Positions 9,255 through 29,250 of a stretch of DNA of 64,000 nucleotides are shown here, one piece after another. A program made the translations under genes and the position numbers. Under the pieces are notes generated by a model. That model was not told the DNA's origin. It worked only from the letters and a program-made list of their open reading frames with translations, and did no database searches. The stretch is from Psammoneis japonica (Eukaryota), in NCBI GenBank assembly GCA_008632985.1, contig QPGO01000258.1, positions 20,166 to 84,165 of the forward strand, read 5' to 3'. Numbering within the stretch: the first letter of the stretch is position 1; each line of letters opens with the position of its first letter.

Positions 9255-10559
9255 TTCGAGTGCATGCGGGAAAGAAGAAAAACACGGGAAGAGAGAAGAG
9301 CGGGAATTAGAGATAGCGAGAAAGGAGCTGGAGTTAGAGACAAGGAGTGGAGCATTTGTAGAAGAGAGAAAAAGAATCGGGGAAATGGCGAGGCGGGAAG
9401 AAGACTGGGTTCGGAAAGGACTGCAGGTAGTAACACTCACACTTGCCTTTGCTTGCTTTACAAGTTCCCGAATGGAAGAATTGAGTCTGGCAGCGGCTTT
9501 TCTGACCATACTCTGGATCCGTGTGTATGAATAAGCATGGTGCAGTTGCTTTTGTGATCGTATCGATCGGTAAGTTTCGGGTGAGCAGCGATATTCTATC
9601 CAACAGAATCTTCGTGGCGCCTGCAGTTCGGCACATATAACGCACAGCACGTACCTGCATATTCAACATTTTGGATTCAGCTTTATGGCGATGGAAAGCT
9701 CAATGCCTGATTCAATGATTCCTTCTTGGGACTGAAAAAGCAAGATTGGCCGTGGACAGTCAGTGTGTTGCTTGCACCGTGGACGGATCCAGACTTGTTT
9801 CTGCAATGGAGTACTTGATGATTTTAATACCTTTACTAGTCGGAAAGATTTCTGTGGGGTTTCAAAGAAACAAAAAAATAGTATGGTTGTGTTAGCAAAT
9901 TCGGTAGGCGTACGGAGAGTTTTGAAGCCGCACGTTCAAATGCACATGCGTAAAGCTCATACCTTCTACAATCGCAACGTAGGCTTTGTTAACTCAGTGT
10001 GTAGTTCTTCAAGCATCGATACGATGTCCTTCGAGCATCGACTTTGTCTTGTAAGTATCGTCCATCGCAATGCTTGCCGTTCGATCTTGTCGGACTCGAT
10101 GAATCCCTTTTGAGACTGAAAAAGCACCATTGGCCGTGGACAGTACGGTACGGTGCAAACCTATTTTATTGAAAGGTCTTTTTTCTTTTTGGACTGACGG
10201 CGGTAGCATCTTTTGTGTTATCAACCAGAAGCGCAAAAAACGCCAATGGTGACGCTCTTCTTCAAAAGTCGCTTCGAGAGGGGACGTCCTTGAGTGGATG
10301 CTTGTAGCTAATGTTCTTGAATCGTTTGCAGTTGCAATCGCCTACATGGTATGGAATGCTTGTACTCGTAGTTGTTTTCTGCTGTTTGTGTCTTTCCAGA
10401 GAGCATGCGCATGGACTATCTAGAGATGTCTCAGGACGCCCTCATGCGTCAATCTCAAGGGACGATAAAGCAGTTCAAGACGACGCCCTACCTGGTACTA
10501 TTGAACGTTGCTTTAGAGGCGCTGCCACGAGTAATAGCGCCGTATATCAGAGTAGCTCG

Positions 10560-12304
10560 CTGCCTGTATCCTTGTCATCACTACTTGATGATGATGAAGA
10601 CGATCCTGAATCGCTCTCTTCGTCGCTGCGGCTGCTGCTACTACTAGAAGATACCTCGTCATCACTATGTCCACCAAGTCACCATCATGCCAGTATCCTG
10701 CTGCTGCTCATCCAATGCACCCTTTGCTTTGATTCGTTTCCGTTTGTGCATTTCCCATACTCGCTCCTTTTCCTGTTCACGATCCTGTTTCATGCCATCC
10801 TCCAACCGCTGACGCACCTTGTCGACATAGGATTGATTTGCATCCGCCAACGAGTCCCGTTCCTCATGCATAGTGTCGGTATTTTTCAAAGAAAGCTTGG
10901 TAGGATCCTGTTCCCGCCCTTCGTCATCAAAGACGATTCGTTTATTCTTGGCATCTAAGCCTCCCTCGACCTTGATTCTCTTTGCCTTTCGAGTTTTGGT
11001 AACCTCATGAATGCCACCCTCGGTGCGTCTACATCCTCCTGGCTCTACTCGTGCCGTTGCTTTAAAACCAACAATTCGTCCACTTCTTTCTCCTCCACGT
11101 TTGTACTTTCCAGCGGACGCTTCTTGTTGTCGAGTTCAGCAATCTTTTTCGTCAACTTTTCCGCCTTGATTTGCTCCTTAAGCTTTTGTAGCTTGTGATT
11201 GACGTTTTTTGGATTTGCGCACCTGCGTTCGATCCTTGATTATTTGTAGAAAGCGAAGGTTGGGAGTGAAGGGCAGTCCCAGAGAAGTGGCAAACTCGTC
11301 TACGGCCAAGTAATCCAACTTGAAGATATCCTTGTTTGGCGTTAAATGAATCGAACGTAGATAGGATTGAAACGCCTTTTTGGCGAGCGATTGTAGTTTA
11401 GGATTTGACGCGACAAGCGAGGCTGCACGTTGGGTAACAAGAACCGTCTTGGTTGGGTTCATGGCCATCTTTTTCAACGGCACGCGAGACTTGCTCAGCA
11501 ATTCCATTATGCCGGCTTCTTCCTGTGGCGTGACACATATTAACGACTTTCCACCAAGATTGTACCGTGTCGTTCGTATCACACGATGGGGAGCACCCAC
11601 TTGAACGACCGAATCGACACTTGCAAAGTCCAACCCACGTGCCACAACGTCTGTCGCAAACAAGACGGCGTTGGGTCGATGGACAAAGACAACTTGCCGT
11701 GCAATGCCATGACGGGAATTCCGGGTAGGTTGAAGCGCACAAGAGAGCTGCCACGCAAAGCGTACTTGGGAACATGACGCCAAGAATATAATCGATTTTG
11801 ATTTGAGATGTGACTTGATAAAGGAATACACCATGTTGAGCTGGTGCTCGAGAGGAACCACAACAACAGACTGAACCAGATTGGATGGAAAAGATGTTGA
11901 TTCCTTATCATGTACAGTACACCAAGGTATTCGGGCTTTTTCAGCGACAACGCAGCCAAATCAGAAACTCGTTTCGTCTGCGTTGCAGAAAACAAACAAA
12001 GTTTGTCGTTCACTCGGGCCGCACCCAAAATGTCTCTTCCACATAGATCATGAGGGATACAAGCGTTTTGTATTTCAGTCATGGTGACAAAGTTAGCTCC
12101 ATCCAATCCACGCAACGTTGCTTCTGACGAAGGGCAAAGCTCGAAACGAAACATGCTGACCAAGCGTAGGAGTATCCTCGACCAGGAGCTTCTGCAGCAA
12201 CCCGCTGTTGAAGACTCTCAATCTCCTGCTCTCATTTTACAACATGTCTCTCATCGCCCCGCTTCTTTTGGGGATAACGGCGCTCGGCGCTTGTACTTGG
12301 CCAT
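10560..12304 (-). pseudogene. DBP4: DEAD-box RNA helicase DDX10/DBP4-like pseudogene, copy 2
   Basis: Q-motif region (LRGLDGANFVTMTEIQNACIPH..GRDILGAAR) jumps straight to FSATQTK (motif I to DEAD deleted); FATDVVARGLDF and AKKAFQSYLRSIHL present; multiple frameshifts; collinear with 4590-6195. Confidence 0.85.
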
Positions 12305-14641
12305 GGTGTTTGTTTCTTCGCTCAAAGTGAGGAGACAAAAGAAAAAATGAGTGGGTTCTGCGAACAGCTCAGCACCTATTTGACTCCATCGACTAAAAAT
12401 CTACAGCACAACTTCGTCGTTGAATCTGCGACCCCAGTCATCTTCGATGGACTGGACCTTTCATGCTGGAACCAAAAACTGCATTGTTTCCTTTCTCTGC
12501 ACTTGACTGGAGGCAGTCAATCTGGTGGAGCAAGATGATGACATGCTGGACATAGATGGTCATGGTGAAAACTCACTCCTCTCTTGTGGATGTTTGCACA
12601 ATGCAACATGTGTGTGAAAAATCAAAAGATGCACTTTCAGCTTAAATTTGCCTTCGTTCCAGATCCCCTTTCTGGCTCCCGGCATCATGAGAAGGCCCAC
12701 ACAATCAACAGGAGAAAAATGCTCCTGCTGCATCTTTGGCCTTTCTGTGACATCACAAAATCATTGCAGACATGTTGATGTTGCTGCGCTGTCTCCAACA
12801 TTTTCACACTTGTTAAAAAACTCAGCAGATGAGTTCACAATTGTTGTTTTGTGCAAGACTGATGAGACCTGTCTAAGAGCTGAGTCCATCTGAAGCAAGA
12901 CCATTGTGTGGGACTTGTTTCTGCACAATTGTGCAAGACTTTTTTTGTTTTTTGTTTTGCAGCCAGTTTCCCATGAAACACTTCTTGTTGCAAGCATTTG
13001 TGAGCAAGATGTTCCAAATGCATCTGGAACAAAACAGTCACAACTTTCACTGAGCAATCATTTGACCCACCAAACTGTCTCTCCAGTGGCCCCAATTGTC
13101 TTGAATTGTCAGGCTGACAGCTCAAAAAGACACAAACACACACACAGGAGGAAGAAACAAAGGGGGGGAGCAACATCTTTGCAGCATTTGGTTGAAAACA
13201 GCAGTGACAACATCAGGCAATTTTTTGCATGGTGACAGAGTGATGATGACAGGAATCAGGAACCATGCATCACTGGGGTTGTTGCTGGCAGCAGGGAAAG
13301 CCAGGGATGACACAAAACAGATGAGCGTGCATTGCCAGCAGCATGTCAGCAACAAGTTTGGGGGGAACTGGACCCAGCAACAAGAGGGCAGTTGCTCTCC
13401 AGCAGCAAGCAGTGTGTGACACTCAGGCAGAACTGCTTCTTTGTGCCAGCAACAACTGGTGTGCTGGGCATCAGCAGCATGGCTGCAGGCATGCTCAGAC
13501 ACATTGCCAGAGTTGCAAGGAATGTGACTGCCCAAAATTTGCACCAGCAAACTTGCACAACTGCTGGTGTTCTCACAAGCTTTGCCCTGGCTGCCTCCAG
13601 CTGCTCCTTGTGCAGTGTGCTGGCATCCCACAGAACCTGGGTTGTTTGTCAAATGACCAGACTGGACTTGCACAAGTGCTTTTTAACTCTCAATGAAAAA
13701 GAAAGCACTGTGTTGAGGTGGTTTGGACAATGTGCACAAAATGGGTGCCCACATGTGCCTCAAGCCCCCCCCCCCGCTGTGCTGGCAATGCACATCATGG
13801 CTTCATTGCTTCACTCACATCTGTTTCATTTCAGGATTGTGGGCATGACATCAGTGTTCATTGTGCCCCATGTCTCAACAATGGTTGAGCCTCTGCAAGA
13901 TTTTCCACAAAGTCACCACACCAAAAGGTGTGGGCATGCACAGCTGTCTTGTGTGGAGTGAAACATTTTCTGAGTGTGCATGACCAGTGCAATTGCTGCA
14001 CGGCACCACCAGGTGCACACTCTCCTGTTTCAACTGGCCCAGAAAATGAGATGCAGACAAGTGCCACATGTTTGTGAAGCAACAAGTTTCTTTTTTGAGG
14101 CACTGTTTGCTCCCAATGCCACGGCTCTAACAAGAGCATACAGAGATGCAAAAAGGCACTCACAATGGGAGATGCAATGGTGGTGGGTGTCACAAGTTGC
14201 CACACAACTGGTGCATGCATTGCAATCATGGCAATTGCAGCTGCAATGGCATGCTGGCATTTAGGATTTGACACAAATTCTGGAAGCTGGAAGCTGACTT
14301 GACTTTTTCATCCTCAATTGTGTGCGTCAATCTCAAATTTGTTTTTGGAAGTGCTGCAGTGGTGACAATGTGTCATCTGACACTTGGTTCCTTTTCTAAA
14401 TTGTTGTGCAATGCCCAATGAGTTTGCATTGTGCAGTGGACTCCTCTGTCCTCTTTGGTGTCCTCAGACTCATTTTTTAGACACAAGACACCACCACTCA
14501 GGTTCATCACACATGCAACCCTCCACCATGATCAACACAACACCTCCTTGTCTTATTCCAGCTTTGCAGACTTGTTAAAAGCACATGTCATGAGTGAACA
14601 GATGGCATTTGAGGATTGAAACAACACCAAAAGTCTGGTTT

Positions 14642-15620
14642 TTAAGTGCTGCTGTGCTTCCACCCCACAACTCTGACAACAAGCTGACCCACACCCCCAG
14701 CACACAAACAGTGCAGCAGGAGCATGAGAGACAACTTGCCAGATTTGGTGTCACCAGTGGGCAGTGCACTGAAACAACTTGCAATTGTCCTTGTGCATCT
14801 GGCAGCCAAACATTTGGCTTCTTTGATGCCAGACTTGAACATGGGTTTGACCATGGCCAACCAACTGCAAAGACAGTGAGCAGAGTGGTTGGTGTGTTCT
14901 TCAACCAAATCCATGAGATGCACTCTGTCCTTTGCCAGGCAGTCATCCATTTGTGAATGAAAAGCTTTCACTTCCACCTCTGCATCACGATGCTGCAAAG
15001 ACTTCCTCATTTCAGAATCATGGCCATGTGCAGCACAGTCATGGGAATCCCACAACTCCCGCCAATGCTCCCAAGTGCAATTGCCCACAGTGGCAGTGGC
15101 AGCATGCATTTCTTGTGGATTCAGTGTGTGCATCTGTGTTGGCATTGCCAGAGGTCAATCACAACCAGTTGCAAGCACAATCAACCTTGTCACTTGCTTT
15201 GAATGACTCCTCTTTGTCCAAATCCTCAGTGCCCAACAACAGATTGGACAAACCAAACTGGGCTTTCTTTTGCACTGTGGAGCCAGATGCCAATGGCAAC
15301 ATGTCAAGAAACAAAAAGAAGAAAAGTCACCGCTGTGACACTTGCTCCCAATGTCTTGGATTGCTGTCCCAAGAGTCAAGATGATGTGGGCCGGAGCTCC
15401 CAAAGCACATTCATTCTTTTTGCTTTCCAAATGAATGCAATGAGTCTCCAGACAAAATGTTGCAAGCATTGTGGACCATGGTGTTGACATTGAGCAAGGA
15501 ACATCACTTGTGTGCGCTGCCATTCTTGCAAGAACATGGAGGTGCAAGCCACAAATCACAGTCACATGACAAGAAGTGCCTGATGAAAAAGCCAAAACAA
15601 GGCACTGTGCATTGGCCAAA
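14642..15620 (-). mobile_element. Possible decayed 3' end of a non-LTR retrotransposon ORF
   Basis: WEHWRELWDSHDCAAHG resembles the W..W..LW..RN...HG motif near the C-terminus of LINE-type ORF2 proteins once CG/TA decay is allowed for; no RT core recognised. Confidence 0.3.
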
Positions 15621-18600
15621 ATGTCTGGTGTAACACTTTTGCATTGCTCATGCTTTCATGGTTTTTGAGTGTGTTTTTGCAGCAACTGCACAACCTGGCT
15701 GCAAGAAATGAAGAGTCACCACTTCCATTGGAATGGCACATTGCACACTTCTTTTGTCAAGACATTCTGCCCCCATCTCTTGCCACACATGCAGAATGCC
15801 TTCAGGTGCCACTCAAGAACAATGCAGTGGCTTCATTGTGGCTGCTGTTTTCTGCTGTTTTGAGCTTGTCAAACATCTTGGTAATTTGGGGGACACTGTA
15901 ATGAGAAGAATGCATTGGCTTGTGCTCACAGTGTTGATCTTCACTCCTCCCACCCATGACCAAAGCCTTGTCAAGTCTGCTTGCCCCATTTGAGTTGCAA
16001 GGATTGCACATCCCAGTGTTGCCATCACAAATGAAATTGGGTGGTCTTTCTTGATGCAGCTGCTCCACACATGGCAGGCATTGATGGTTGATGGGGTGAT
16101 GCACCTTTTCTGGTTTTTTGCACAAGACAATGACACATGGTTGCATGCTGTCTTTTGGGGTTGTTCTTGTTGCTGTTTGCACCCCACAAGACACATGTGG
16201 GAGCCAATGGAGAATTTGATCTAGGAGGCTTTGACAAGTCAATGCCAAGTCTCTCAAAAGCAGGTGTGCAGCTCTTGCCAGCAAAGCCAGAAACTCCATC
16301 ATTCAAAGGCTTCCTCATTGCAATGGGGTCAAATGAGCCAAATGGAGCAGCCTGTTTGTTTGACCAACACAATGGTTTTCAAAAGGAAAATGACACATTG
16401 TTCAACTCGTTGGCAAGAAAATGCACTGAGAAACCATCCCTGCATTGCCCTTGCTTTGTGGAGCAGGGACAGGCTGAATGCATTGCTGTGCAAGCTGGAC
16501 ATTGCAGCTGAGGGGTTTGCAGCGGAAGCCCCTGTCACCACACAAATGGCTTTCTCTTGGCACATTGAAACAAGATGAATCACTGCACAGCAGTCTAAGA
16601 GCTTGTGGCCTTGTCAATGCCAAAGACATCTCACTTTGCTTGGTGCTTCATTGTGCTGGTCAACAAGCCCACAATGCATGTCTGCCAATGTGCAACATGG
16701 GGAAAGTGCACTGAATGTTTCGCGCATCAGTGGTGAGGGGAGTGGGCTCTGTGGAAGCAACGCTGAATTCCATTGTGGAGAATGGCTCCAAAAAAGACAA
16801 TGTTCATTGTGAACAAACCCAACATCAGTTTTGGCCTCTGATGTTTCCACCAGGATGGAGCCAAACACTCTGTGAGCAGCCAAATGAAAGAGCATGCAAA
16901 CATCTTGTGAAGTCAAAAATGATGAGTTGGGCTCATTGGATTTTCTGTGAGATTCTCTGGCACAGTTTTTGCACATTGATGAATGATGCCTGATGCAACA
17001 ACAAGTGGCCATCATCTTGCTTGCCACACAATTTCAAGTTTTGTTGCAACAAACACTGTTGTTGCCAAGAATCTGTCCTCGTTGATGCCCCCCCCCCCCC
17101 CCCCCACATTGTGATTGCTCTTCTTCTTTGGTGTCAAGTGTGCAGCGCTGTTTTAGACATCACAGAGCCACCAGGCAGTTGCCTCAATCTCCAAGTGATT
17201 GATGAAAGGAGAAGCTCTTGCCACTTGCTTTTGTCTCCCATGACAGCAATCTTCAGAAGATTCACATGTTGGTCCACAATTTTTCAAAAGCTTCTCCATG
17301 AAGCCTTGTGGCTTTTGTTGCCTTGCAAGGTCACCACCGCTGCATGCCAAATTTCCCTCTTGCTGGGAATTTTGGATGCTTCAGAGAAAAAATGAGCAGA
17401 ATCTGAAGGACATGTCAATTTGGCCAATGAGATGCACAGGGACACAAAACAGAAGAGGTGATGAGCATTGGAGACAAGGTCAATTTTTTTAAAATCTTGG
17501 TGCTTTTGGTGGCACTGGCAACATGATGAACTTTGGCTCCATGTGTTGCATCTTGTTTCAGCAGGTGAGGGCTGTGTTTTCTGAAATGACTTTGAGACCT
17601 GTCAACACCTCCAATGTGATGACTGCAGAGTGGCAGAGGGTTGAGCTGTGCAGGGTGCACCAAAAATGGGGTTGTTGTTCCGTGCATCAGTGGTCAGTGT
17701 GTTTGGCATCAGCAGCCTCAGATGGCTCCAGGGCTGATGTCACCATTGCTCCCCAGGAGGCAAAGGTTGTGGAGGAGGTTGATGGCTGCTGAGTCATGAC
17801 AGCTGACAACTGGCAGTGTAAAGAGCACAGGCCAGGAGGGTTCATGGGTGGCACAGCTTTGGTCAACAGAGCAAGGTAGCATGCCCCAGACATGTCAACC
17901 TTGTTGAAGAGACTTGCGGGCTGAGTCTTAAAACATTTGATGGTTGACATCATGAGCCCATGGCAAAGGATCAGTGCAGCATCTTCACATGACTTGTGGT
18001 GAGGCCCACAAATCTCAACAACATTTTCTTCCTTGTTGAGCTTCTTCTTGCTCTTGAGATCATCTGCAGGTCCAGTTTGCTGCTGCACTGTGGACTTCAG
18101 TTGTTCATGCTGTGCAAGCCAGCCACATGGCTGGTGCATCATGCTGCAAAGTGAATCTGCAGAATGAAGTGCTGTCATTGGCACAAAGACTTTGGCAGCT
18201 GACACAAATGTGAAAAGAAGCAACATGCACTCCTTCTGCTTAAATTGTGTTTGATGCATGTTTTGAAAACCAACCATTTCTTTGCTCATGCTGCATGGAG
18301 CTGCACATCAATCACGACATTCAAAAATTCAACTGTTGCTTGAGTTTGGACAAATCCATTGAGAGTGCATGCAAGCTTTTGGCATCAAGAACATGTGAGG
18401 CTGTGCACTCCGCCTCCACCACAAATTCTCTTGTTTTGGTCTTGTTTGTCATTTGCAAGTTGGTTGAAAGCAACTCGGCTGACAGGCCCTTTTCTGTTGA
18501 CCATTTGGAAATGCTGGCCAGTGCACCAGGTTTGGAAAAATGCAAACAAGAGAAAGCATCATGAGAGTTTGCAAAACAGTGGCAACAACAAAACAAACAC

Positions 18601-19739
18601 CCTTTTCCAAAACCAAGCTTGACTTGCCTGTCTGCCCCAATGCACTTGGCACAAATTCCCATGACAGCTCAATTGCAAGTTCCATTCATTCATCCAGCTG
18701 TTCATTCATTCAAGTTGGTGGCACATGTGTCCAACAGCTTTGGCGCTTTCTCATTCACAACACTGTCAATGAGTGTGGTTGCCAACACAATGCCACAAAA
18801 GTGTGTGGACAGAGAGCTGTTGCTGCACAGGCACAGCAAACAAATGGCAGTGCAAGTGTGCAACAAACCCACAAAGCAGCAAGGAGAGCATGCAAGACAG
18901 GTTTAAAATGACATGCAATGTGCAAAAAGAATGTGCCGTGTGCACAACAAAACCAGCCAACTTCTGTGCAGGGCATCGCATGCCTTTCTGCAATGACTCA
19001 CTGCCGTGGCACCCTGCCCTTTCTTTGCTCTGTTTGTTGCAGCTGTGGCAAATGCATCCAGCCCCCAGTCACATGCAGACTCTCCACATTGTAAAACTTG
19101 GACAATGCAACAGAAAATGAAGAAGCCCACAGAACAAAAAGCAAAGTGTGTCTTTGCCATGAAGCTGAGCATGCGCCCATTCTGGACACTTGCTTCATGC
19201 AAAGACGCTGTGAAGCAGCTCCACACCCAGATGCACAGAATGGTTCTGCAGACAAATCAACATGCGCAGCATCACTTTCTGTCTTCTCATCACAACCTGA
19301 GTGAGCATTTCTTCCTTTGAACTTGTCTTGGCTTTTGCTGCACTTTGGTTGTTTGCCACACATGGAGGATTGTTCACAGCATGGAGCGGATGGCTTGGGC
19401 AGACAGTGGGAAGAAGGGGAGTCATCAATGCCAGAGAGGTGCAAGCTGAGAGCAGTCGGCAATTTGGCAAGTTGATTGTCCAAAATGACCTTCAAGACAC
19501 ACAGAAAATGTGCTGAAACTTGTGCAGACTTGTCGGCACACAGAAGGATGGCCAATGCATGCCAAGTTGGTGTCATCTTCAAACTTCTGAAAACAGCAAC
19601 AATGGGAGAACATTCACCATGTGAAAGAGGAAACTCAAATGGACAATGGGGAGAAGGAGGGTTGTTGATGCTTGAGAGGTGTGAAGAGAGAGCAATTGGA
19701 AGTTTGATGAGTTGCAGACAACATGCTGCACAACTCAAG

Positions 19740-20255
19740 TCAACCATGGGGTGGTTGCAGTGGCAGCAACATTTAACACCAAGTGCAAGAAACACCTGGA
19801 GAGCATGTTAAAACATCATTGTGATCACAAGGTGGGCATCCTGAAGAAAGATGTCTCCCCATTCAATGCCTTTGATCATCTTTCATCATCTGAACTCTTC
19901 ACTCAATTTCTTTGTTTCTTCTGCATCCGACATGACAGCAAATGTTTTGAAGGTCTAAAGTGGAGTGCATCATGCAGGTGCCCATGACTTGGACAATGCA
20001 CTCAACCAAGGTGACACAGAAAGGCATGAGCTCTTTCTTTGGCAGTGTTTTCAATGCCAAAAACACAAGCAAGCATGGCAACCCTTGCTTGTCATGATCA
20101 TTTGCAACAATCAAATTGTCCAAATGTCCACATTGAACCATCCAGAAGTTTCAATGTGTGGCTCAAATGACACCCTTCAATGCCAAATGAGACAATCCCG
20201 GGCACTTGTCAATGATTTGTGCAAGTTCCTGAGGAGCCGCAAGCAGTTGGACCTG
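19740..20255 (+). repeat. ~510-bp dispersed direct repeat, copy A
   Basis: Collinear with 21635-22148 (e.g. CAACATTTAACACCAAGTGCAAGAAA ... GCAAGTTCCTGAGGAGCCGCAAGCAGTTGGACCT). Confidence 0.9.
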
Positions 20256-21634
20256 GGATTGCAGAAGTGCATAGAAGATGTGGCACAATCAAAGGAAATT
20301 TTGCAACTCCCCCCCGCCCCGCTGCAGCAATGCCTGCGGTGCTCCTTGACAGCTGAAAACAATGATGTCACATCCCAGTGACAGGAATGGTGCATGGGGC
20401 AGAGAGCCATTGTGCAACAACAACAACCACTGAAGAGAAGAATGCCAACCAAGAGTGGAAGGAAAGTCCTGACCACAGGAAGAAGACAAGACAAAGGGGT
20501 GAGAACCACAGATTGAACCAGTGTTCAACAATGCTGCCATGACGCGATTCTTCATGTGGCGCACCATGGGTGCTGCCATGGTGAGAGAAGAAAAACCCAT
20601 CTCTGAGTGGGGGGCAATTTGTGTTTGGCAAATTGAAGAATGTGGGTCCGGCTCATTTCCATGCAGGTTTTGGGTTCATTGCATTTGGGATTCCATCACA
20701 TTTGGTGGGGGCAGTCACACTGGCATGCTTCATTGCATTCATTGACAACAATGCAGGTTGACAACTCGGCGGTGCACCACCAAAATTTCTGGCCCCTTTG
20801 CATTTTTCGTGTGCTCCACCAACATTTCTGAGCTTCGTCCATGTCCTTTTAATCCACCTGCTGGTCTGTCAACAGTTGATTCTGTTTGTTTTCATTTTTG
20901 CATGTTGTTGCCAAACATCTGTTTGAACAACAACAACGTGTTGCTGTGCCTCTGGGAAATGCAAATGTCAATGTTTTTGATGTCGTCATCATTGTTGTTG
21001 CCCACCTGCAGCTGATGGCTGTCATTTTCTTGAGTCTCTTTGTCCCATCCATGCACTCCCAGAACTCCTTTGACCAAGCTTCACTGCACTCATCTGCATC
21101 CTTGCTCAAGAATCTCCAACACTCATGAGTCCGTTCTCCCAATTCTTTTCATCTCTCTGGTCCTTTCTTGTTCCAACCCTGACTCACTTGGCTGCCAGAA
21201 TGAGCCCCTCATCTTTTGCGTTTTGCACTGCATGCATGTCCACTTTTGCCAGTTGTTCTCCAAAGTTAGCAGGCCAAATGCCAACCAGTTCAAGCAATGT
21301 TTTGACTTGAGCTGATGCTTCCACATTGTCTTTCCCACTGCTGTTGGCAGGAAATGCAGGACAAAACAGCTGTGGGCTAAAATGTCGTCCCTTTTCTCCA
21401 GCATTTCATCCAGAAAGGGCATCTTGGCATTTTTCCTGCTTGCGCATGTTTCTCTTCTCATGATCCATGTGCCCAGTGCACTCACAACACACCAAGCAAC
21501 ACCTGTTGGCAGTTTTCCAGCACCCCACATGTTGATGCAGTGCTTGTGAAAGTGTTCTTTCTTCAGTTCCCTGCTGAAATGCTCAAAACCCACAAATCAA
21601 GTTTTCTTCTTTCTAAGTGCAGACAACAACCACA

Positions 21635-22148
21635 AGGTTGGTTGTGGCAGTGGCAACATTTAACACCAAGTGCAAGAAATGCCTGGAGAGCATGTCAAAA
21701 CGTCATTGTGATCACAAGGTGGGTGTCCCAAAGAAAGATGTCTTCATTCAATGCCTTTGATCATCATCTGAACTCTTCACTCAATTTCTTTGTTTCTTCT
21801 GCATCTCACATGACAGCAAATGTTTTGAAAGTCCAAAGCAGAGTGCACTGTGCAGGCATTCATGACTTGGACAAAATGTGTTTGATTGAGATGACACAGA
21901 AAGGCATGAGCTCTTTCTTTGGCAGTGTTTTCCATGTAAAAAAAAAACAAAAGCAACAAGCACAGCAACCCTTGCTTGTCATGATCATTTGTTGCAATCA
22001 AATCGTCCAAATGTCTGCATTGAACCATCCAAAAGTTTCAATCTGTGGCTCAAACAACACCCTTCAATGCCAAATGAGACAACCCCGGGCAGTTGCCAGG
22101 TGTCAACAATTTGTGCAAGTTCCTGAGGAGCCGCAAGCAGTTGGACCT
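21635..22148 (+). repeat. ~510-bp dispersed direct repeat, copy B
   Basis: Collinear with 19740-20255. Confidence 0.9.
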
Positions 22149-22199
22149 CAAATCCTGCAAATGAGCCAGCTCCAACCAAATTGATTCAGAGCACAGCTT

Positions 22200-24460
22200 G
22201 AAATGTTCACATTGTCTGGGGAGAGGCGTTGTCAAGCGGACAATGCTTCTAAGATCAGGATCAAACTGTAGAAAATGCCACCAGTGACTGGCAGTTGACA
22301 ACAGCTGGCCGGAACCCTTTTGACTGACACCCATTTTTGTCATTTTGAGTGCACGGAATGATGTGTGGTTTGTCAACAACACAGATTGAAGGCTTTGCAA
22401 CAGTGCAGAAAGCATCTGACACACAGAAGGACATTGCACATGACCAACAACAAGAGTCAACAAGCACAATTGGCAACATTGAAGCCCAACAGTGGGATTC
22501 ACCCGGAGCTTGTTGTGTGCAGGCAGCTCTCTCTGCAAGGCTCCAAGTGCCAGAAATCATTGCTGCAATGATGAGAAACAGGGTGATTTGACAAATTGGT
22601 GTGGCCTGGTGCTGTTGACAGCCAATTGTGATGCCACGACCTTGAGGATGTGCAACATGCCATGACAGTTTGAACTGGCAAACTCTGGCATGCCAAAAAA
22701 ATCCTGCACCAATGTCCATTTCTTCGCTGCAATGCCCAGCCCAGTTCACCCGTCATTGTTGTTGAACAGTGCAGTTGTTGAAATGGGACAAAGCAACCAA
22801 GAAAGACAAACAATGCCCCAAGAGTCCTTGCACCACCGGCCACAACAAGTGCAGTCATCATGTGAAACAGCAGGACGATGAAAACACTCACAACAACCCC
22901 CTTGCTGTTGCACCATGCCCTGTGAGTGTCACTTGCACACAAGAGAAGTCTAAGATGTTGATGAAAACAGTTGAAGTCACATGTGTCCTTTGCAAACTTG
23001 ATCATGCTTTCTCAAGTTGCTCCCCAAAGGTGGCATCCAAGTCCGGCTTCCAAAAAGACGTTCCAGACTCACAATTGTCTGTTCAAACATCTGCGAGCAT
23101 CGTTCACATTGTGAACAAGATGCAATGCCACACCCAAGGTGCATGTTGTCCACACTTTTTTTGCTCCACTCACAAGTGTGGATCTCAACCATGCAAAGCT
23201 GGAAACCCACCCATCTTCCAAAAGGAAACAAGACCGAGCCTGAGTGATGCAAAGCCACATGAAAACAATGCATTGAGTGACATTCATGCCATTTTAAAGA
23301 GACTGTGGCAACAAGCAATTTGTTCATGCTTGCCTGGGTTGTTTGTTGTCTGGGTGCTGCACTCAACAAGCACATCACGGAAATGATTTCACAGCTGCTG
23401 CATTGGTCAAAGACAGGTTCTTGCTCTGCAAGTGGCAAAGTGCAGCACACAGAGAAAACACTTGTGTGAGCCACACAGGCAACTTAAACAAAGGCAGAGA
23501 TCTGACAAATGGAAGGAAAAAAAAAACACGAAACTGCTCTTGACAAGTGTTTTAAAAATGTGGACAGAATGAGCCACACAGGTGGCTTAAAATGAGAAAA
23601 AATGTGTGTTTGTTGTGTGCCAAGAAACAAAATTAACAATTGTGTGTGTTTAAGATCTGTGGATGCAATTAGCCAGCATGTGAAAATTTCAACACTTAAA
23701 AAGTTGTGCTCTTGTCAAGCACAGAAACATGTTGCAGATGCAGAGGAAGGAGAGAGGCCACACACACAAGCACCAGTGGTGACAGGCTGGCTGCTTGCAC
23801 AGGAAAGGGAGACATGAGTTGTTGAGTTGGGGCAAAGGGTTGGACCAAGAGCAAGCAGCACAAGACAGAAAAAACATCATCAATGCAAGGGGAGTTGGAG
23901 CCAATTGCAAGCAGCCCAAACTGGGCATTGCTTGGTGGAACAAAGGGTCTCCATGTTTGTTGTCATGAGCACGAGTGGTGTCAAAAGTGGGTTTGCATTC
24001 TAGTTCAGCAGCAGCGGTGCTTGTTGGAAAGTGTCATCAGATCAGCCTGTGGTTGCACCATGACAAAAAAGAAGAATTTTTGGCCCAATCAGCTGGCGGT
24101 CACAGCAATTTGTCTGTCTGCCCATCAAACAGGTTGTGTCCATGCCCCCATGTTGTGCCCTCTGTCTTTTGATGGCTTTTGCTCTGTCACTGACAAAGGA
24201 CCCATTTTGATTTTACAGCAGGTTTGCAAATCTTGTGTCCATTTCTTTTCTGCTTGCAAACCAGCTCCCAAAAATTGCATGAACAATGTCCACAGGAAGG
24301 AAAATGTTGCATGGGTTGGATTCAATCCTCATCATGTCACAACTGGTCTCCTGCTGCATGCAACCAAGGTGAAACAATCCATCCTGACAAAAAGGATGAT
24401 GAGTCCACAAACAAGTTGAAAATGATTGGCTTGGAGCAAAAAAGCATGTGATGGCTTCAT
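22200..24460 (-). mobile_element. Possible decayed Plavaka/CACTA-like transposase relic
   Basis: Minus-strand fragments in plausible order: LVCGLIILFV..D, NPTHATFSFL, LALMMFF, LGVALHLVH, KGSGQLL...HWWHF. Resemblance only, heavily mutated. Confidence 0.25.
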
Positions 24461-25887
24461 CAGATTACTTGTTGCTGTGCGGGGGGGCATCTGGGCTTTT
24501 TGTCCAGTGCACACATTGTTGGAAAATGAGCTCAGGACGGAGCTTGGAACAAAACACATGTGCACATGCCCCCTTGAAGGTCTTTGGTGGTGAGAGCCCT
24601 TGTGGCTGCACACCCCTTGCTTGAGCAAACTGTGTGGCAGAGTGGCTTGTGTGTTGCAAACATCTGTCTTGTGGCATTTGAGTCAACAAGAGGCTTGGAT
24701 CTTGGACATTGATGTGTTTGGCATCCAACAAGGCTGCAAACACTCTGGGCAATGGGCTTGTGAGATGGTCACTTCGGTTTCTTGTGATTCTGATGAGAGT
24801 TGGTGCATTTGCTTCCTTTGTCTGCATCTGCCATGTTTGGAGCCACAAGTCTTTTTGTTGCTGTCACCTGCACACTTTCGCTTGTTGCATTGACATGACG
24901 TCCAAAGACAGCTCTTCCACAGACAGACTTGACCACTTTCTTGTCAAACATTCAAGAGGACCCTGCAAAGACATGTTGATTCCAGCACAATGTTGGCCAC
25001 CAAAGAAGCGTTGCCATTGACCAGACTGCAAGTTCAGCGCTGCTGCTTTCTGAGGCCTGAAACAATTGATTGACCAGGGGCACATCTGCGGACACTGCGC
25101 AAGAGTTCCAATGTGACCACAAGAATGGATGGAGCCCTTTAGAACAGAAAGAAGCAAGAGGGCCCTCTCTCTAAAGAGAGGGCCATTGCAAAAGCATTTG
25201 CAGAAGTTCTGAGTGTGTCAAGTCCCTGCTTGAAATGCGATGGTGATTCGTTCGTGCTGGGTGCTGACAACAGGTGACGTCTCTGATCCCTGAGTCAACA
25301 GAACAGCCACATGATTGGCTATTCATTCAATGCTCTGCAATTGACTTTTTGTCTTGTTCAAACCCCATTTTGAAGAGTGTGCAATTCGAAGCATCAGCTT
25401 GTTTTTGCACACTTTCTAAGCCAAGCCAAACAAACAGAACCTTCCTTGCTGTCTGGAGCAAATGCTCCAGAGATTTGCCAATGAGAGTGCCTGGCAATGT
25501 CCTTGGAGCCTTTTTACAGCAGAATGATCCGCTCACAGACAATGCATCATTGTCATGTTCATGCCATGCCATCCCTTCTGCTTTTTTGTCAATCTTCAAT
25601 CTGTTGATTTTTCTTTTTGTTGTGCCAATTTTAGCTTTTCCATCCTTTTTTATTTTCGTCACACATTTGACCAAAATAAGAATAATGTCAAGCGAAGGAC
25701 AGACAGACATTTCCTGCGCTTTCTTTTGCAAGAACGCACTCCCGGCTTGGAAGCAACTCGCAACAAAAATAAGATTCTGACACTGACAGCAAAGCAATCA
25801 TCAGTCATCATCATTGAATTCTCAATCAAGAGAAGCTTGCCCCGAAAGTCACAATATTTTTCGTATTGATCATTCTTTTATCAAACA

Positions 25888-27888
25888 ATGGCGTCGTCGT
25901 GGTTGTCGGTTCCCAAAGACTCGGACTTTTCGCTTCGCAACATACCTTTTGGTGTGGTGTCACCTCGCTCGAAACTACCGCGATGTGCTACGATTGTCGG
26001 TGACACGGTTGTCGATTTACAAGTCTTGCAGGAAGCGGGACTCTTGGATGATATACCCAATCTAGGTCCCAATGTCTTTGCAGAGCCAACGCTCAATTCA
26101 TTTCTGAAACACACGAAACCAGTGTGGACGGCCACCCGAGAACGTCTTATGAATCTCTTGACAGGTACTGACAAGCGTCTTTCTACAAACAGTAAGCTTC
26201 AGCAAGCGGCTTTGTATCCCGTCGAAACGGTAGAAATGTGTATGCCTGTCACTGTGGGTGACTATACCGACTTTTACTCGAGCCGAGAGCATGCAACCAA
26301 CGTGGGTATCATGTTTCGTGGCAAGGAAAACGCCTTGCAACCCAATTGGCTTCATTTGCCCGTCGGTTATCACGGACGGTCCTCAACCATATTTCTCTCG
26401 GGAAAGCCCATTCATCGTCCGTGTGGACAGTTGCAAAAAGACAAGGATGATCCCAAACAAGGCAGCATCTATGGTCCTTGCCGATTGCTAGATTACGAAT
26501 TGGAGGTGGCTGCGGTCGTCGGCGGACCTGCCAATACGGCTCCCATGTCACTCGAACAAGCCAAGCACCGCATCTTTGGATATGTTCTCATGAATGATTG
26601 GTCGGCGCGAGATATTCAAAAGTGGGAGTATGTTCCGTTGGGTCCCTTTACGGCGAAGAACTTTGCCACCACAATTTCTCCATGGATTGTCACCATGGAC
26701 GCTCTTGAAGACTTTCGTGCCATCAGTTCGGCTGGTCCAGAGCAAGTCGATCCAATGCCGCTACCCTATCTCCAAGACCCAATTTATAGTTCGTTTGATG
26801 TCAAGCTATCCGTTGGAGTCAAGGCTTCCGACCAGTCAGAGCCCACCGTGGTTGCTCGATCCAACTTGAAGCACATGTATTGGAACGCGGCTCAACAACT
26901 TGTGCATCACTCTGTAACGGGTTGTGTGATGCAAGCAGGCGACTTGTTGGGGAGTGGAACAATCTCTGGAACAGAACCGGGATCCTATGGCAGCATGCTT
27001 GAATTGAGTTGGAAGGGTACCAAGGAAATTCCATTGGGTGACCAAGTGCGCAAATTCCTCAAAGATGGTGATTCCGTAGTAATGAAGGGATACTGTGTCG
27101 GACAAGACGGAACTCGCGTGGGCTTTGGCGAATGTGAAGGCACCATTTTGCCAGCCAGAACTGACAACACTCCTGATAATTCCTCTTTGGTGCAAGAGGA
27201 CCGATACGTTGATTTCAAGCTTTATGGTTACTGGAGGTCGTCATGCACTTGGCGTGTCCGCGTGGCGCTTGCCGCAAAGTCCATTCCATATGAAACAATC
27301 CCCATTGACCTTGCTAAAGGCGAAAACAAAAGCAAAGGCTTTCTTTCCATTAATCCCATGGGACAAGTACCAGTCTTGGAGTGCAAAGACCGCGTTTCTG
27401 GCAATGTCATTCGGTTGTGCCAGTCGCTTGCCATTATTGAATTTCTCGAGGAGGCCTTTCCTCAGCGCAGGTCTCTCCTTCCCACCGGCCCAGTAGATAA
27501 AGCCATGGCTCGAGAAATGGTGGAAATTATCAATGCTGGTACACAGCCACTTCAAAATATCATGCACCTCCATAAGCTTGAAGAATTGTCGGAAGGCAAA
27601 GTCCAGGCGATTGACCAGGCCAGGATCGCAAATGAGATGGGCCTTGCCTCATTGGAAAAGGTCGTGATTCAATGCCAGCTAGAACGAAATGGGCCGTATT
27701 GTCTTGGAACGTTTTCTCCCACGCTCGTCGATACTGTAATGGTACCTCAACTGTACAATGCTCGTCGGTTTGGGGCCGATGTTGACAATGTATGCCCCAC
27801 GTTGGTACAGATCGACAGATTTTGTTGCGATCATGTGTGGTTCCAAGCGTCTCATCCTAGTGTTCAGCCGGATGCCCCAAGAGAGTAG
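25888..27888 (+). CDS. FAH: Fumarylacetoacetase fused to C-terminal maleylacetoacetate isomerase (GST-zeta)
   Basis: FAH motifs DFSLRNIPFG, GDYTDFYSSREHATNVG, LPVGYHGRSS, LDYELE, NDWSARDIQKWEYVPLGPF, GDLLGSGTISG; then GST-zeta motifs LYGYWRSSCTWRVRVAL, NPMGQVPVL, QSLAIIEFLEE, AGTQPLQN, PQLYNARRF, HPSVQPDAP in one uninterrupted 666-aa ORF. Confidence 0.96.
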   Translation: MASSWLSVPKDSDFSLRNIPFGVVSPRSKLPRCATIVGDTVVDLQVLQEAGLLDDIPNLGPNVFAEPTLNSFLKHTKPVWTATRERLMNLLTGTDKRLSTNSKLQQAALYPVETVEMCMPVTVGDYTDFYSSREHATNVGIMFRGKENALQPNWLHLPVGYHGRSSTIFLSGKPIHRPCGQLQKDKDDPKQGSIYGPCRLLDYELEVAAVVGGPANTAPMSLEQAKHRIFGYVLMNDWSARDIQKWEYVPLGPFTAKNFATTISPWIVTMDALEDFRAISSAGPEQVDPMPLPYLQDPIYSSFDVKLSVGVKASDQSEPTVVARSNLKHMYWNAAQQLVHHSVTGCVMQAGDLLGSGTISGTEPGSYGSMLELSWKGTKEIPLGDQVRKFLKDGDSVVMKGYCVGQDGTRVGFGECEGTILPARTDNTPDNSSLVQEDRYVDFKLYGYWRSSCTWRVRVALAAKSIPYETIPIDLAKGENKSKGFLSINPMGQVPVLECKDRVSGNVIRLCQSLAIIEFLEEAFPQRRSLLPTGPVDKAMAREMVEIINAGTQPLQNIMHLHKLEELSEGKVQAIDQARIANEMGLASLEKVVIQCQLERNGPYCLGTFSPTLVDTVMVPQLYNARRFGADVDNVCPTLVQIDRFCCDHVWFQASHPSVQPDAPRE

Positions 27889-28789: not shown

Positions 28790-29250
28790 AGAATTTTTTT
28801 ACACCTGTGAATCAAAGATTTGATCAATGAAGCACAAGTGAAGAGATGAAATGAACAAATGAAGATCAAAGCATGGATGGCATCAACTCCACATTTTGTG
28901 GTCTTCCTCATCAATGCAGGAGAACAACATTTCTCTTCACAGCTCCCTCACATCACACTCAAGACAGGGGGCACATTTCTTAAATGTGTCAAGTCAAAAC
29001 AAGCAATGTTCATTGATGGAGAAGGTGCAGCAAACAAACGAACATCGGATCCTGGGTTTGGTCACTCAGAAATGGCTGACAACAGAGAAAAAGCCCATCT
29101 TTTGATTTCCACACAACAAACACACCATTTCTTGCCAAACCAATGGCCACATCTGACAGCAAGAACTTCCAAAACCAACACACATGCTTTCACTAGATGG
29201 CAATGACAAAGAACAGCTCACACAAGGCTGGGCATGGGTTGGCAGCACAT
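28790..29250 (+). repeat. Decayed relative of the 55700-56327 inverted-repeat arm
   Basis: CTCAGAAATGGCTGACAA...CCCATCTTTTGATTTCCACACAAC...GCCAAACCAA matches 56136-56215 with CG->TG/CA and TA->CA/TG changes. Confidence 0.85.

Follow-up and report, generated by a model that had tools for sequence, protein, structure and literature searches.

Probable regional mutational erasure of TpA and CpG dinucleotides in blocks of a diatom genome

In the genome of the pennate diatom Psammoneis japonica, five blocks of DNA poor in both TA and CG, amounting to ~32 kb of a 64-kb stretch, probably reflect a regional, context-specific mutational erasure of both palindromic YpR dinucleotides, with an enzymatic process behind the loss of TpA and decay of 5-methylcytosine (5mC) behind the loss of CpG. 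The stretch analysed, hereafter the window, comprises 64,000 nt (positions 20,166–84,165 of contig QPGO01000258.1, assembly GCA_008632985.1), and the blocks were delineated in a 1-kb table across it. The claim of the initial annotation that over half of the window is depleted, in five multi-kb domains, holds narrowly: 66 of the 128 500-bp windows are TA-low.

The first block (1–1648), extending past the left end of the window, is devoid of TA, as had been noted by eye: the first TA of the window is at 1649, vs. 65 expected in 1–1648 at the density of normal DNA (P(0) = 4e-29). CG is absent from 1–1002 and is represented by a few copies in 1003–1648. The second block (12430–25800) has a saturated core (12900–25100) and graded edges, with an observed/expected ratio (o/e) of 0.02–0.11 for TA and 0.03–0.27 for CG. 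The third block spans 28400–35000, and the fifth one (59950–64000) continues past the right end of the window. In the older part of the fourth block (45200–48200), TA and CG are both gone; its younger part (48200–53050) retains 13 TA (9 of them YTAR) and most of its CG (o/e 0.6–0.96). Recognisable gene copies are found in this younger part.

Pooled depleted DNA (32,282 bp) contains 84 TA (o/e 0.04) vs. 1280 expected at normal density, and 442 CG (o/e 0.23, falling to 0.03–0.15 in the old parts of the blocks) vs. 1884 expected, along with the initially noted saturation in TG and CA (o/e 1.83 and 1.82, respectively). In pooled normal DNA (29,850 bp), the o/e values are 0.59 for TA, 1.00 for CG, 1.18 for TG, and 1.16 for CA, and the genes flanking the blocks show the same 0.59 for TA and 1.00 for CG, so the depletion of TA is indeed far greater than in the gene islands. 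Since the sum of the YpR dinucleotides (TA + CG + TG + CA; 24.45% of dinucleotides in depleted vs. 24.46% in normal DNA) and the GC content (0.489 vs. 0.482) match those of normal DNA, the composition of the blocks is as expected from the conversion of TA and CG into TG and CA. The counts of TG and CA are nearly equal in each domain, and a runs test (z from −0.04 to +2.4) revealed no strand-coordinated runs in the blocks, indicating that both strands were affected. Environmental contigs in which a neighbouring gene has orthologs, 540 kb in all, were scanned as well, and none of their 2041 windows shows the signature.

The edges of the blocks, initially described as sharp, are so (within 100–200 bp) at five of the eight boundaries (~1600, 35000, 45200, 53000, and 59950) but are graded across ~200–700 bp at the others (12400–12900, 25100–25800, and 28200–28400). 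Likewise, the joint loss of TA and CG stands for most of the depleted DNA but not for 48200–53050 and 1003–1648, where TA is absent (or nearly so, with the 13 survivors in 48200–53050) and CG is retained. Among the 128 500-bp windows, split 62/52/14/0, 14 are TA-low with CG kept, and none is CG-low with TA kept. Erasure of TA is complete in the block harbouring FKBP and dihydroxyacetone kinase (Dak) gene copies, though these genes still share ~88% identity with unmutated contigs of paralogous sequence and have most of their CpGs left. Thus, the loss of TA is separable from the loss of CG and is always ahead of it.

The direction of change was inferred from repeats and paralogues. A depleted copy of a repeat family in the third block (28796–29254, forward strand) was compared with two copies of normal composition, the arms (54342–55031 and 55640–56327, 90% identical) of an inverted repeat at 54342–56327, which serve as an unmutated outgroup and show that repeats beyond the domains escape mutation. 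Not a single one of its 19 ancestral TAs is kept, 14 having become TG/CA and 5 something else; the same is true of 18 ancestral CGs (14 TG/CA and 4 other), against a background divergence of ~20–25%. A sequence in the second block (16909–17098, forward strand) has a homolog of normal composition at 1767–1950, whose 8 TAs correspond to TG (5), CA (2), and CG (1) in the depleted copy and whose 11 CGs correspond to TG (6) and CA (5), none being kept. Within the fourth block, at 20 of the 31 listed differences from the contigs assembled from raw reads, the contig reads TA (9) or CG (11) against TG/CA in the window, vs. 0 of 9 in the flanks of the block (p = 1e-3). Transitions at A/T amount to 15/36 at bases in the TA context vs. 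23/190 elsewhere (p = 8e-5). Taken together, these sequence comparisons indicate that ancestral TpA and CpG in the blocks were both converted into TpG/CpA, site by site and on both strands. The initial proposal of an activity beyond CpG decay that replaces A:T by G:C at TpA on either strand, inside bounded domains, is supported by these polarised comparisons.

Repeats lying wholly within the blocks tell when and where the change took place. Two copies of a depleted direct repeat (19741–20269 and 21627–22163, both on the forward strand) are 84% identical, or 93% after R/Y recoding, with a transition-to-transversion ratio (Ts:Tv) of 60:11, and carry TG in one copy vs. CA in the other at 18 of 111 YR steps. 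In the third block, the three copies of a 220-bp unit arrayed in tandem (31606–32291, forward strand) were each mutated independently (8 of 52 YR steps discordant; Ts:Tv 24:4). Overall, 26/163 steps are discordant in pairs of depleted repeats and 2/330 in pairs of normal composition (p = 1.5e-11), with Ts:Tv of 84:15 and 170:129, respectively. The mutation hence occurred in situ, at least partly after the local duplications.

The depleted sequence does not stem from consensus building or polishing, because contigs built from raw reads give the TA-free sequence exactly, although this exclusion is not absolute. The k-mer/De Bruijn contigs were derived from the public run X1 (single-copy depth 58–74; platform not on record). 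This run is probably from the assembly's own sample, so the contigs are independent of the assembly in computation but not in sample. Even so, they reproduce the TA-free DNA, which bears on the initial concern that raw reads from an independent platform might show normal TA content: there are no differences in 46616–47690, 51333–51847, and 62564–63129 and two in 45124–45934, and a 5888-nt contig (56312–62199) spans the boundary of normal and depleted DNA of the fifth block with 15 differences. The notion that sequencing, basecalling, or polishing erred at modified bases, the true DNA being normal in TA and CG, draws on the systematic transition errors that such bases cause in some long-read basecallers. 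However, the read contigs yield TA-free sequence with 0–2 differences per 500–1000 nt, paralogous contigs from the same run still carry TA and CG, the depleted repeat copy diverges by 20–25% at other sites, and the gene relics bear indels, a repeat insertion, and substitutions outside TA/CG as in real pseudogenes, so this explanation is close to refuted already.

The identifiable contents of the blocks are relics of cellular type (Dak1, FKBP_C, and DENN) and repeat fragments, and the remainder, i.e., most of the block DNA, is unidentifiable. A search of 175 ORFs of at least 90 aa and 54 read-through frames returned no viral or transposon Pfam domain in the depleted blocks. A relic of a cellular DENN-domain gene in the second block (15284–16037, forward strand) is legible only with stops taken as X; it matches Pfam DENN at ~15662–16033 (E 2.3e-6, 28.1 bits vs. 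a cut-off of 23.4) and, at E ≤ 1e-3, 75 proteins of the library (best 2.2e-10), one of which aligns over relic residues 29–277. Of 69 conserved columns, 25 are altered in the relic, and 7 of these 25 revert upon restoration of a single TA or CG, e.g., RY to WH in SPLPLERYIANF. A copy of an FKBP-type isomerase gene (48282–48794, forward strand; FKBP_C E 1.7e-7) lies in TA-free DNA and has CA/TG where a paralogous read contig has TA/CG.

The Dak1 pseudogene copy (50889–52650, reverse strand), located in the younger part of the fourth block, contains no Tyr over 410 aligned codons. Its GGGSGHEP motif is short by one codon, its frame changes at ~52503, a 389-bp repeat is inserted in it, and the C-terminal Dak2 part is not detectable in 50889–52650. 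It differs at 18 of 111 invariant columns (vs. 21/291 in a control gene), and 8 of these 18 revert by a single TA/CG restoration. Five of the nine A:T>G:C changes at conserved residues are not at TpA; therefore, either the activity is not strictly specific or other processes also played a part. The inserted repeat (51821–52209) is a short high-copy element with a summed word depth of 12,800–33,000 vs. ~62 for single-copy DNA; its joints run from 51820 to 52210/52211, with a loose end at 52147, and the paralogous Dak contigs are without it. It is still CG-rich but has only two TA left, and it bears CA/TG where other genomic copies have TA/CG.

The TAs that survive follow a flank rule. The YTAR context accounts for 64 of the 84 residual TAs, compared with 192 of the 1184 TAs of normal DNA (p = 1e-30), with survival of 0/72 for ATAT, 0/99 for GTAC, 1/214 for ATAC/GTAT, and 27 vs. 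42 for TTAA. Within Y-TA-R, survival decreases in the order TTAA > CTAA/TTAG > CTAG, and R-TA-Y, R-TA-R, and Y-TA-Y are extinct; by triplet, it is 0.09 for TAG and 0.18 for TAA vs. 0.006–0.022 for TAT/TAC. Survival of CG depends on the flanks in a different manner (GCGC 0.56, TCGA 0.14). The flank required may be either a purine at −2 or a pyrimidine at +1 of the edited A. The bulk products are asymmetric (YTGY +1023 vs. RTGR +348), and the direct tallies disagree (7 vs. 4 for TA and 6 vs. 9 for CG). The survival of Y-TA-R is a fingerprint of the specificity of the activity, constraining the enzyme candidates initially put forward (a TadA-like deaminase or Pol eta) without identifying one.

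On the most probable reading, regional mutation has struck chromosomal blocks of non-functional DNA (the remains of gene copies, pieces of repeats, and sequence that cannot be identified), whereas DNA a few hundred bases beyond a block is untouched. Inside the blocks, TpA (as A:T to G:C) and CpG were both turned into TpG/CpA equally on the two strands, in situ and at least partly after local duplications and repeat insertion. Loss of TpA is the faster, leading process, and CpG loss is not seen without it. The TpA component would most likely be due to an enzyme that deaminates DNA adenine preceded by a 5′ T, a deaminase of the TadA/ADAT fold or another one, guided by a chromatin state. The CpG component would most likely be ordinary deamination of 5mC in the same methylated, silent domains. 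TadA/ADAT2-3 acting on tRNA A34 and ADAR acting on dsRNA convert A to I (read as G), and their preference for a 5′ U/T would give TpG from TpA; AID/APOBEC enzymes target C and not the A that changes here. Members of the deaminase superfamily are well established as hypermutators of viruses and mobile elements, although we know of no natural DNA adenine deaminase demonstrated in such a role in protists. Decay of CpG via 5mC in vertebrates, plants, and diatom transposons likewise leaves TpG/CpA in place of CpG outside genes, the CpG of neighbouring genes being retained at the expected level. However, it cannot remove TpA, the loss of which is more complete and earlier here, and it was rejected as the source of the whole signature, also in view of the 14 TA-free windows with CG kept.

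The view that no described germline system bears this signature is outdated, because mutation-accumulation lines of Bigelowiella natans show regional hypermutation solely of TpA to TpG/CpA (Mettrop et al. 2026, bioRxiv 10.64898/2026.01.13.699255). In these lines, 231 of 302 mutations fell in two regions, 230 of the 231 being A>G or T>C and all at TpA; in a giant-virus-derived (NCLDV) region, the figure was 210 of 211. The targets described there are integrated sequences of viral (NCLDV, virophage) or other foreign origin that mutate de novo at ~1000-fold the genome baseline (10.64898/2026.01.13.699255); in our case, only the end state is visible. Both cases share the conversion of TpA to TpG/CpA on both strands (here, in 14/19 and 7/8 of ancestral TAs, none kept), bounded regions beside normally mutating DNA (here, five blocks), and TpA-depleted, CpA+TpG-enriched clusters rich in unannotatable genes. 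The TpA component in the diatom is probably the same kind of process. The differences start with the hosts, a rhizarian vs. a stramenopile diatom. The NCLDV region is reported at rho 0.45, vs. a saturated TA o/e of 0.04 over half of the 64-kb window, and its spectrum is given as nearly free of C>T/G>A, whereas 14/18 and 11/11 ancestral CGs were converted here (o/e 0.23). The term 'CpG' does not occur in the paper, and its main text gives no flank rule akin to the Y-TA-R survival. In the diatom, the erasure of CpG may be a process distinct from that of TpA but active in the same domains. Viral targets are described there, vs. the Dak, FKBP, and DENN copies and repeats identifiable here.

Among the alternatives, a single ADAT2/3-like deaminase editing A at TpA and C at CpG, with CpG lost without 5mC decay, is doubtful but deserves consideration: CG loss is strictly nested in TA-depleted DNA (0/128 windows CG-low with TA kept) and is extreme in the old parts, and the B. 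natans preprint refers to reports of ADAT2 enzymes acting as DNA deaminases on A as well as on C (bioRxiv 10.64898/2026.01.13.699255). Nevertheless, the losses are kinetically separable, the flank dependence of CG survival differs, and the B. natans spectrum as reported has essentially no C>T. Less likely still, the change would begin on T, a TET/JBP-type dioxygenase oxidising thymine at TpA to 5-hydroxymethyl- or 5-formyluracil that pairs with G. T>C on one strand equals A>G on the other, so sequence alone cannot separate the two, and a palindromic target with equally mutated strands fits either. 5-Hydroxymethyluracil favours TpA in dinoflagellates, and 5-formyluracil causes T>C. Such an activity would, however, need strict TpA specificity, as T in the far commoner TpG stays and TG is the stable end product. 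With regard to the dual deaminase, diatom repeats are CpG-methylated, which suffices for CpG decay. An origin of the blocks as retro-copies of transcripts edited by an ADAR-like enzyme is very improbable: it would account for the sharp edges, and the preprint mentions a 5′ U preference of ADAR (bioRxiv 10.64898/2026.01.13.699255), but one reverse-transcribed strand would yield one outcome, whereas TG and CA are equal and alternate at base-pair scale. In-block tandem and dispersed copies resolved the same ancestral sites differently, the repeat inserted in the Dak copy was mutated too, and CpG loss is left unexplained. Moreover, ADAR prefers a 3′ G and favours TAG/TAA triplets, the very survivors here. 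Fixation of hyper-edited dsRNA by retro-copying was rejected on these grounds, strand symmetry refuting it for practical purposes.

Detection and mutation of duplicated DNA, as in repeat-induced point mutation (RIP) but aimed at TpA (and CpG) instead of CpA, is unlikely. RIP of Neurospora and other ascomycetes is similarly regional, saturating, transition-only, and sharp-edged, destroys coding sequence in non-essential or duplicated DNA, and is readable as genome defence. It converts CpA to TpA, creating TA and lowering GC; here, TA disappears, CA/TG are in 1.8-fold excess, the GC content stays the same, and the strands show no coordinated runs. Thus, the initial judgement that this is not RIP is upheld by the opposite direction of change. 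A homology trigger gains from the FKBP–Dak block duplicating sequences elsewhere in the genome, from in-block repeats mutated after duplication, and from fragments of dispersed repeat families in the blocks. Yet RIP mutates all copies, and here duplicates outside the blocks are unmutated (4648–6138 vs. 10557–12017; the ankyrin genes at 38528–39755 vs. 43972–45205; the 690-bp arms of the inverted repeat, which belong to a multi-copy family), with the low discordance (2/330) and Ts:Tv (170:129) given above. In each duplicated pair examined, the in-block copy alone was mutated, its outside partner keeping TA and CG; most block DNA occurs only once in the window, also when compared in R/Y code, and the hypermutated NCLDV region of B. 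natans is single-copy (bioRxiv 10.64898/2026.01.13.699255). Finally, selection against TA/CG for functional reasons (e.g., nuclease or transposase sites) or a regional AT-to-GC bias of gene conversion is highly unlikely: the unchanged GC and the concentration of A/T transitions at TpA (15/36 vs. 23/190) exclude simple GC-biased conversion, as the initial annotation required, and the blocks hold destroyed rather than conserved genes, with no coding or RNA family detected in them.

A regional process of this kind has been reported once so far, in the unrelated alga B. natans. Compared with it, the diatom shows a saturated depletion, an added erasure of CpG, and damage to repeats and to pseudogenes of cellular origin instead of DNA recognisable as viral. 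The coding capacity of the affected DNA is permanently destroyed, Tyr becoming Cys/His, as seen in the gene relics, and Arg becoming Trp, Cys, Gln, or a stop, in the manner of a genome-defence or pseudogene-scrapping system.

The window harbors five multi-kb blocks (1–1648, ~12430–25800, 28400–35000, 45200–53050 and 59950–64000), located by a 1-kb dinucleotide table and by listing the TA-free and CG-free gaps, in which TA is nearly gone and TG and CA are roughly doubled. When the depleted DNA (32,282 bp) and the normal DNA (29,850 bp) were pooled and compared, TA occurred 84 times (observed/expected, o/e, 0.04) in the former vs. 1184 times (o/e 0.59) in the latter, and CG 442 (o/e 0.23) vs. 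1742 times (o/e 1.00), with TG o/e of 1.83 vs. 1.18 and CA o/e of 1.82 vs. 1.16. At the same time, the GC content (0.489 vs. 0.482) and the total share of YpR steps (TA + CG + TG + CA; 24.45% vs. 24.46% of dinucleotides) are the same in both sets, exactly as predicted if TA and CG were converted wholesale into TG/CA. The five TA/CG-poor, TG/CA-rich domains noted in the initial annotation are confirmed by these figures, and so is TA depletion exceeding that of gene-bearing DNA; the complete lack of TA reported for 1–1648 holds as well, the first TA of the window being at position 1649 (65 expected in 1–1648 at normal density, P(0) = 4e-29). The edges, described as sharp, proved so at five of the eight internal boundaries (within 100–200 bp), and the other three are graded over roughly 200–700 bp. 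Several duplicated or repeated segments with normal composition terminate at or near the block edges, i.e., at 12286, 45205, 53093 and 1767 (segments 10557–12286, 43972–45205, the inverted pair 53093–53224/53972–54100, and 1767–1950); hence, some of the sharp edges may be breakpoints of rearrangement or insertion, not chromatin borders.

The depletion was also checked on raw reads. The public sequencing run X1, whose kind was guessed as DNA, contains 77% of the sampled 31-mers of 44001–54000. Contigs assembled from its raw reads independently of the assembly (single-copy depth 58–74) are identical to the window over 46616–47690, 51333–51847 and 62564–63129 and differ from it at two positions over 45124–45934; a 5888-nt contig running from normal DNA through the 59950 boundary to 62199 carries 15 differences. 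Since these contigs reproduce the TA-free DNA, the errors of consensus or polishing raised as a caveat in the initial annotation are excluded, X1 and the assembly coming probably from one sample, so that X1 is probably not an independent one. The interleaving of TG and CA outcomes within a few bases (normal copies ATATCTATAA, depleted copy ACACCTGTGA), together with the occurrence in the same run of paralogous contigs retaining TA and CG, argues against a read-strand artefact. At 45831–45832, the X1 contig reads CA and the assembly TG, an adjacent double transition in a contig otherwise exact over 45124–45934. This single case, as expected of two alleles separately resolving one ancestral TA or CG, hints at such a resolution and at recent or ongoing mutational activity. 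In run X2, from the same sample, almost no depth is found over the doubly depleted 46002–48002 and 60009–64000 (within 44001–64000), and the depth is high over some genic parts, with 471 over a TA-containing FKBP paralog; if X2 were RNA, the low depth would indicate silent blocks.

The direction of change can be read from depleted segments with homologs of normal composition. The depleted segment 28796–29254 has two homologs of normal composition, the arms of an inverted repeat (54342–55031 and 55640–56327), and the positions where these arms agree were taken as the ancestral state. None of the 19 ancestral TA steps was kept (eight became CA, six TG, and five other steps), nor was any of the 18 ancestral CG steps (ten became CA, four TG, and four other steps); ancestral TG and CA are unchanged at 11 of 22 and 24 of 35 positions, respectively, and the divergence at the remaining sites is 20–25%. 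Transitions of A/T affected 15 of the 36 TA-context bases vs. 23 of the 190 others (p = 8e-5), so the anticipated enrichment of A:T>G:C changes at TpA was borne out, with GC unchanged. In the depleted 16909–17098, compared with the normal 1767–1950, no TA (0/8) and no CG (0/11) is kept, and TG or CA now stands at seven of the eight ancestral TA and at all 11 ancestral CG steps. Some X1 contigs are ~88% identical to the part of domain 4 (45200–53050) with decayed copies of FKBP and dihydroxyacetone-kinase (Dak) genes. The comparison rests on 40 listed of 1658 differences (31 inside domain 4 and nine in its flanks): at nine of the 31 the contigs read TA, and at 11 CG, in place of the TG/CA of the window, vs. 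none of the nine flank differences (p = 1e-3). The repeat 51821–52209 inside the Dak copy has two TAs remaining (CAGAAATGTGCATG in this copy, TAGAAATCTACGTG in the consensus of the other genomic copies). Overall, the comparisons support the proposal of a putative TpA-directed A:T>G:C activity that operates on both strands, differs from CpG decay and is confined to the domains.

The residual TAs follow a rule of flanking bases: 64 of the 84 are in the pyrimidine-TA-purine (Y-TA-R) context (TTAA 27, CTAA/TTAG 29, CTAG 8) vs. 192 of 1184 in normal DNA (p = 1e-30). Survival, expressed as the length-normalised ratio of depleted to normal counts, is zero for ATAT (0 vs. 72) and GTAC (0 vs. 99) and rises through ATAC/GTAT (1 vs. 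214; 0.004), ATAA/TTAT (1 vs. 173; 0.005), CTAC/GTAG (2 vs. 175; 0.011), ATAG/CTAT (2 vs. 117; 0.016), GTAA/TTAC (14 vs. 142; 0.09), CTAG (8 vs. 49; 0.15) and CTAA/TTAG (29 vs. 101; 0.27) to TTAA (27 vs. 42; 0.59). Since TA is palindromic, the edited A would need either a 3′ pyrimidine (T-A-Y) or a purine two bases 5′ (R-T-A). The bulk product classes, with genic DNA as a proxy for the ancestor, point to the 3′ pyrimidine (YTGY +1023 vs. RTGR +348), a preference not confirmed by the direct flank tallies, which are few and balanced (TA 7 vs. 4, CG 6 vs. 9); under either reading, the surviving triplets are TAA and TAG. ADAR prefers a 3′ G, which is opposite to this survival pattern, whereas the preference of TadA/ABE for T-A-C is compatible with it.

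Duplications inside the blocks bear on the mode of action. In the direct repeat 19741–20269/21627–22163, 18 of the 111 YpR steps differ between the copies as TG vs. CA, and eight of 52 are discordant in this way in the 220-bp tandem array 31606–32291, vs. 1/164 and 1/166 in two duplicate pairs of normal composition (pooled, p = 1.5e-11); the transition:transversion ratio is 84:15 for the depleted pairs vs. 170:129 for the normal ones. Such discordance implies that one ancestral TA or CG was resolved independently in each copy, and we infer that the blocks mutated in situ and after duplication. The counts of TG and CA are nearly equal in every block, and their order displays no runs (z from −0.04 to +2.4; down to −5.6 in genic DNA), which argues against an origin by reverse transcription of one edited strand, and likewise against long tracts made processively on a single strand. 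Outside the blocks, neither the duplicates nor a multi-copy inverted repeat is mutated, and in each duplicated pair examined only the block copy is mutated; as judged from these sequence comparisons, the process is not simply repeat-induced. Decay of 5mC alone is insufficient to explain the signature, and fungal RIP operates in the opposite direction. Among the 500-bp windows (n = 128), 62 are normal, 52 are low in both TA and CG, 14 are low in TA with CG kept, and none is low in CG with TA kept. In the block with recognisable genes and ~88% identical paralogs, TA is fully lost and CG little, hence TpA loss is the faster one; CpG loss would follow it in the same domains, the rate being estimated from end states.

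The Pfam and Rfam results suggest that the recognisable contents of the blocks are decayed copies of cellular genes and repeat fragments, the rest being unrecognisable. Among the 175 block ORFs of at least 90 aa, only FKBP_C and Dak1 were above the Pfam threshold; sub-threshold hits to TPR1-like, Pre-SET and DUF3716 were disregarded. Scanning every block in all six frames with stops read through gained only a DENN domain beyond the ORF scan, and nothing else in Pfam, viral and transposon domains included, was found in any block (175 ORFs, 54 read-through frames); no Rfam family was detected in the window. Comparison of the window with itself after R/Y recoding revealed no new large homology between the blocks and other DNA, and the identity of already known pairs rose. 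The FKBP-type copy (48282–48794) and the Dak copy (52650–50889, minus strand) reside in the right half of domain 4, which is TA-free with a CG o/e of 0.6–0.96. By its sequence, the Dak copy is a pseudogene: it lacks Tyr throughout its 410 aligned codons, NYTGDRLNFG became NCAGDRLNFG and KYDT became KCDT, GGGSGHEP is one codon short, the reading frame switches near 52503, a repeat of 389 bp interrupts the copy (51821–52209), and the C-terminal Dak2 part was looked for and not found in it. It departs at 18 of the 111 columns invariant in four homologs (eight revert via one TA or CG restoration, and nine are A:T>G:C transitions) vs. 21 of 291 columns, along with 20 Tyr in 672 residues, in the control, the fumarylacetoacetase gene in normal DNA (p = 0.013). 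The inserted element has a summed k-mer depth of 12,800–33,000 in X1 (hundreds of copies) and a 16-nt hairpin at 52000–52034. The DENN-domain relic (~15284–16037, domain 2), exposed by reading stops through as X, scores 28.1 bits in Pfam (E 2.3e-6, cut-off 23.4) and is matched by 75 of 1.84 billion library representatives at E ≤ 1e-3 (best 2.2e-10). It departs at 25 of 69 conserved columns, seven of which revert by one TA/CG restoration, e.g., SPLPLERYIANF read as SPLPLEWHIAHF (CGG>TGG, TAC>CAC). With TAA and TAG gone, TGA is the sole stop in the blocks, hence the many long spurious ORFs on both strands. The longest comprises 297 aa (46400–47293), and automatic annotation would probably call such ORFs as genes.

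The genes of the normal DNA are ordinary and mostly intron-poor. A single 672-aa ORF (25870–27888, plus strand) encodes fumarylacetoacetase (N- and C-terminal domains) fused to a GST-type domain, which is maleylacetoacetate isomerase in the annotation of some sources, and one protein thereby unites two successive steps of tyrosine catabolism. All best hits (diatoms wherever a name is given) carry the fusion as well; the best relatives are 60–64% identical, and the named ones come from raphid pennate diatoms (Fistulifera, Mayamaea, Seminavis, Amphora), which assigns the window to a pennate diatom. In environmental contigs at FAA-hydrolase/GST orthologs (80 loci, 540 kb), the signature was found in 0 of 2041 windows; this set, mostly non-diatom and with many contigs bacterial or short, is a specificity control and not evidence on other diatoms. 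Two ankyrin-repeat genes, a protein kinase, a KIX-domain protein and a helicase fragment are also present. A 627-aa open frame of normal composition directly after block 1 (1918–3801, plus strand), containing tandem repeats of 249 bp and 93 bp, gave no Pfam match. Two adjoining 18-bp tandem arrays, mutually reverse complementary (54142–54322), lie beside the 690-bp inverted repeat 54342–56327 (arms 90% identical, ~600-bp spacer, normal TA/CG content); its family is multi-copy (summed word depth ~1000 vs. 62 for single-copy DNA), and it may be a foldback-type element.

The view that no germline system of this kind had been described has been overtaken by a preprint on mutation-accumulation lines of the chlorarachniophyte Bigelowiella natans (Mettrop et al. 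2026, bioRxiv 10.64898/2026.01.13.699255). According to this preprint, 231 of 302 nuclear point mutations fell in two integrated viral regions (~6e-7 mutations per site per generation), 230 of these 231 were A>G or T>C, all 230 at TpA, and an ADAT2-like DNA adenine deaminase was proposed; CpG and diatoms are not mentioned in it, and the main text gives no flank information. The diatom window has the type of mutation and its regional confinement in common with that case, but the lineage differs, and the diatom case is more saturated, involves CpG erasure and has other identifiable targets, so it is not a proven member of the same kind. A literature search for a diatom report of TpA-depletion domains found none.

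The mechanism is newly constrained by the flank rule, the kinetic nesting with CpG loss, the action on cellular pseudogenes and the independence from mere duplication. The survival of Y-TA-R represents an enzymatic fingerprint for testing candidate deaminases or dioxygenases, and a natural TpA-directed DNA A-to-G editor would interest base-editing research. The strictly nested order, TpA first and CpG later, ties the process to domains that lose CpG, and its targets include cellular pseudogenes and repeats, beyond viral inserts. Decayed genes and repeats in such blocks are hidden from annotation, their homology being regained only via read-through or R/Y recoding. It is conceivable, if on balance doubtful, that diatoms have in common with chlorarachniophytes an ancient adenine editor of DNA, directed by chromatin, which recognises TpA, spares Y-TA-R and irreversibly scraps silenced DNA. 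Foreign sequences, repeats and redundant copies of genes would all count as its silenced targets, and the same enzyme would possibly also deaminate C at CpG; such a eukaryotic genome-defence pathway, the reverse of RIP in direction, could shape half of some genome regions. Regional TpA-specific hypermutation has one previous report, the 2026 preprint on a single rhizarian alga, and the diatom provides a second, phylogenetically distant and far more saturated instance. This second case suggests a wide distribution or an ancient origin of the process in the stramenopile–alveolate–rhizarian (SAR) lineages, or else its repeated evolution.
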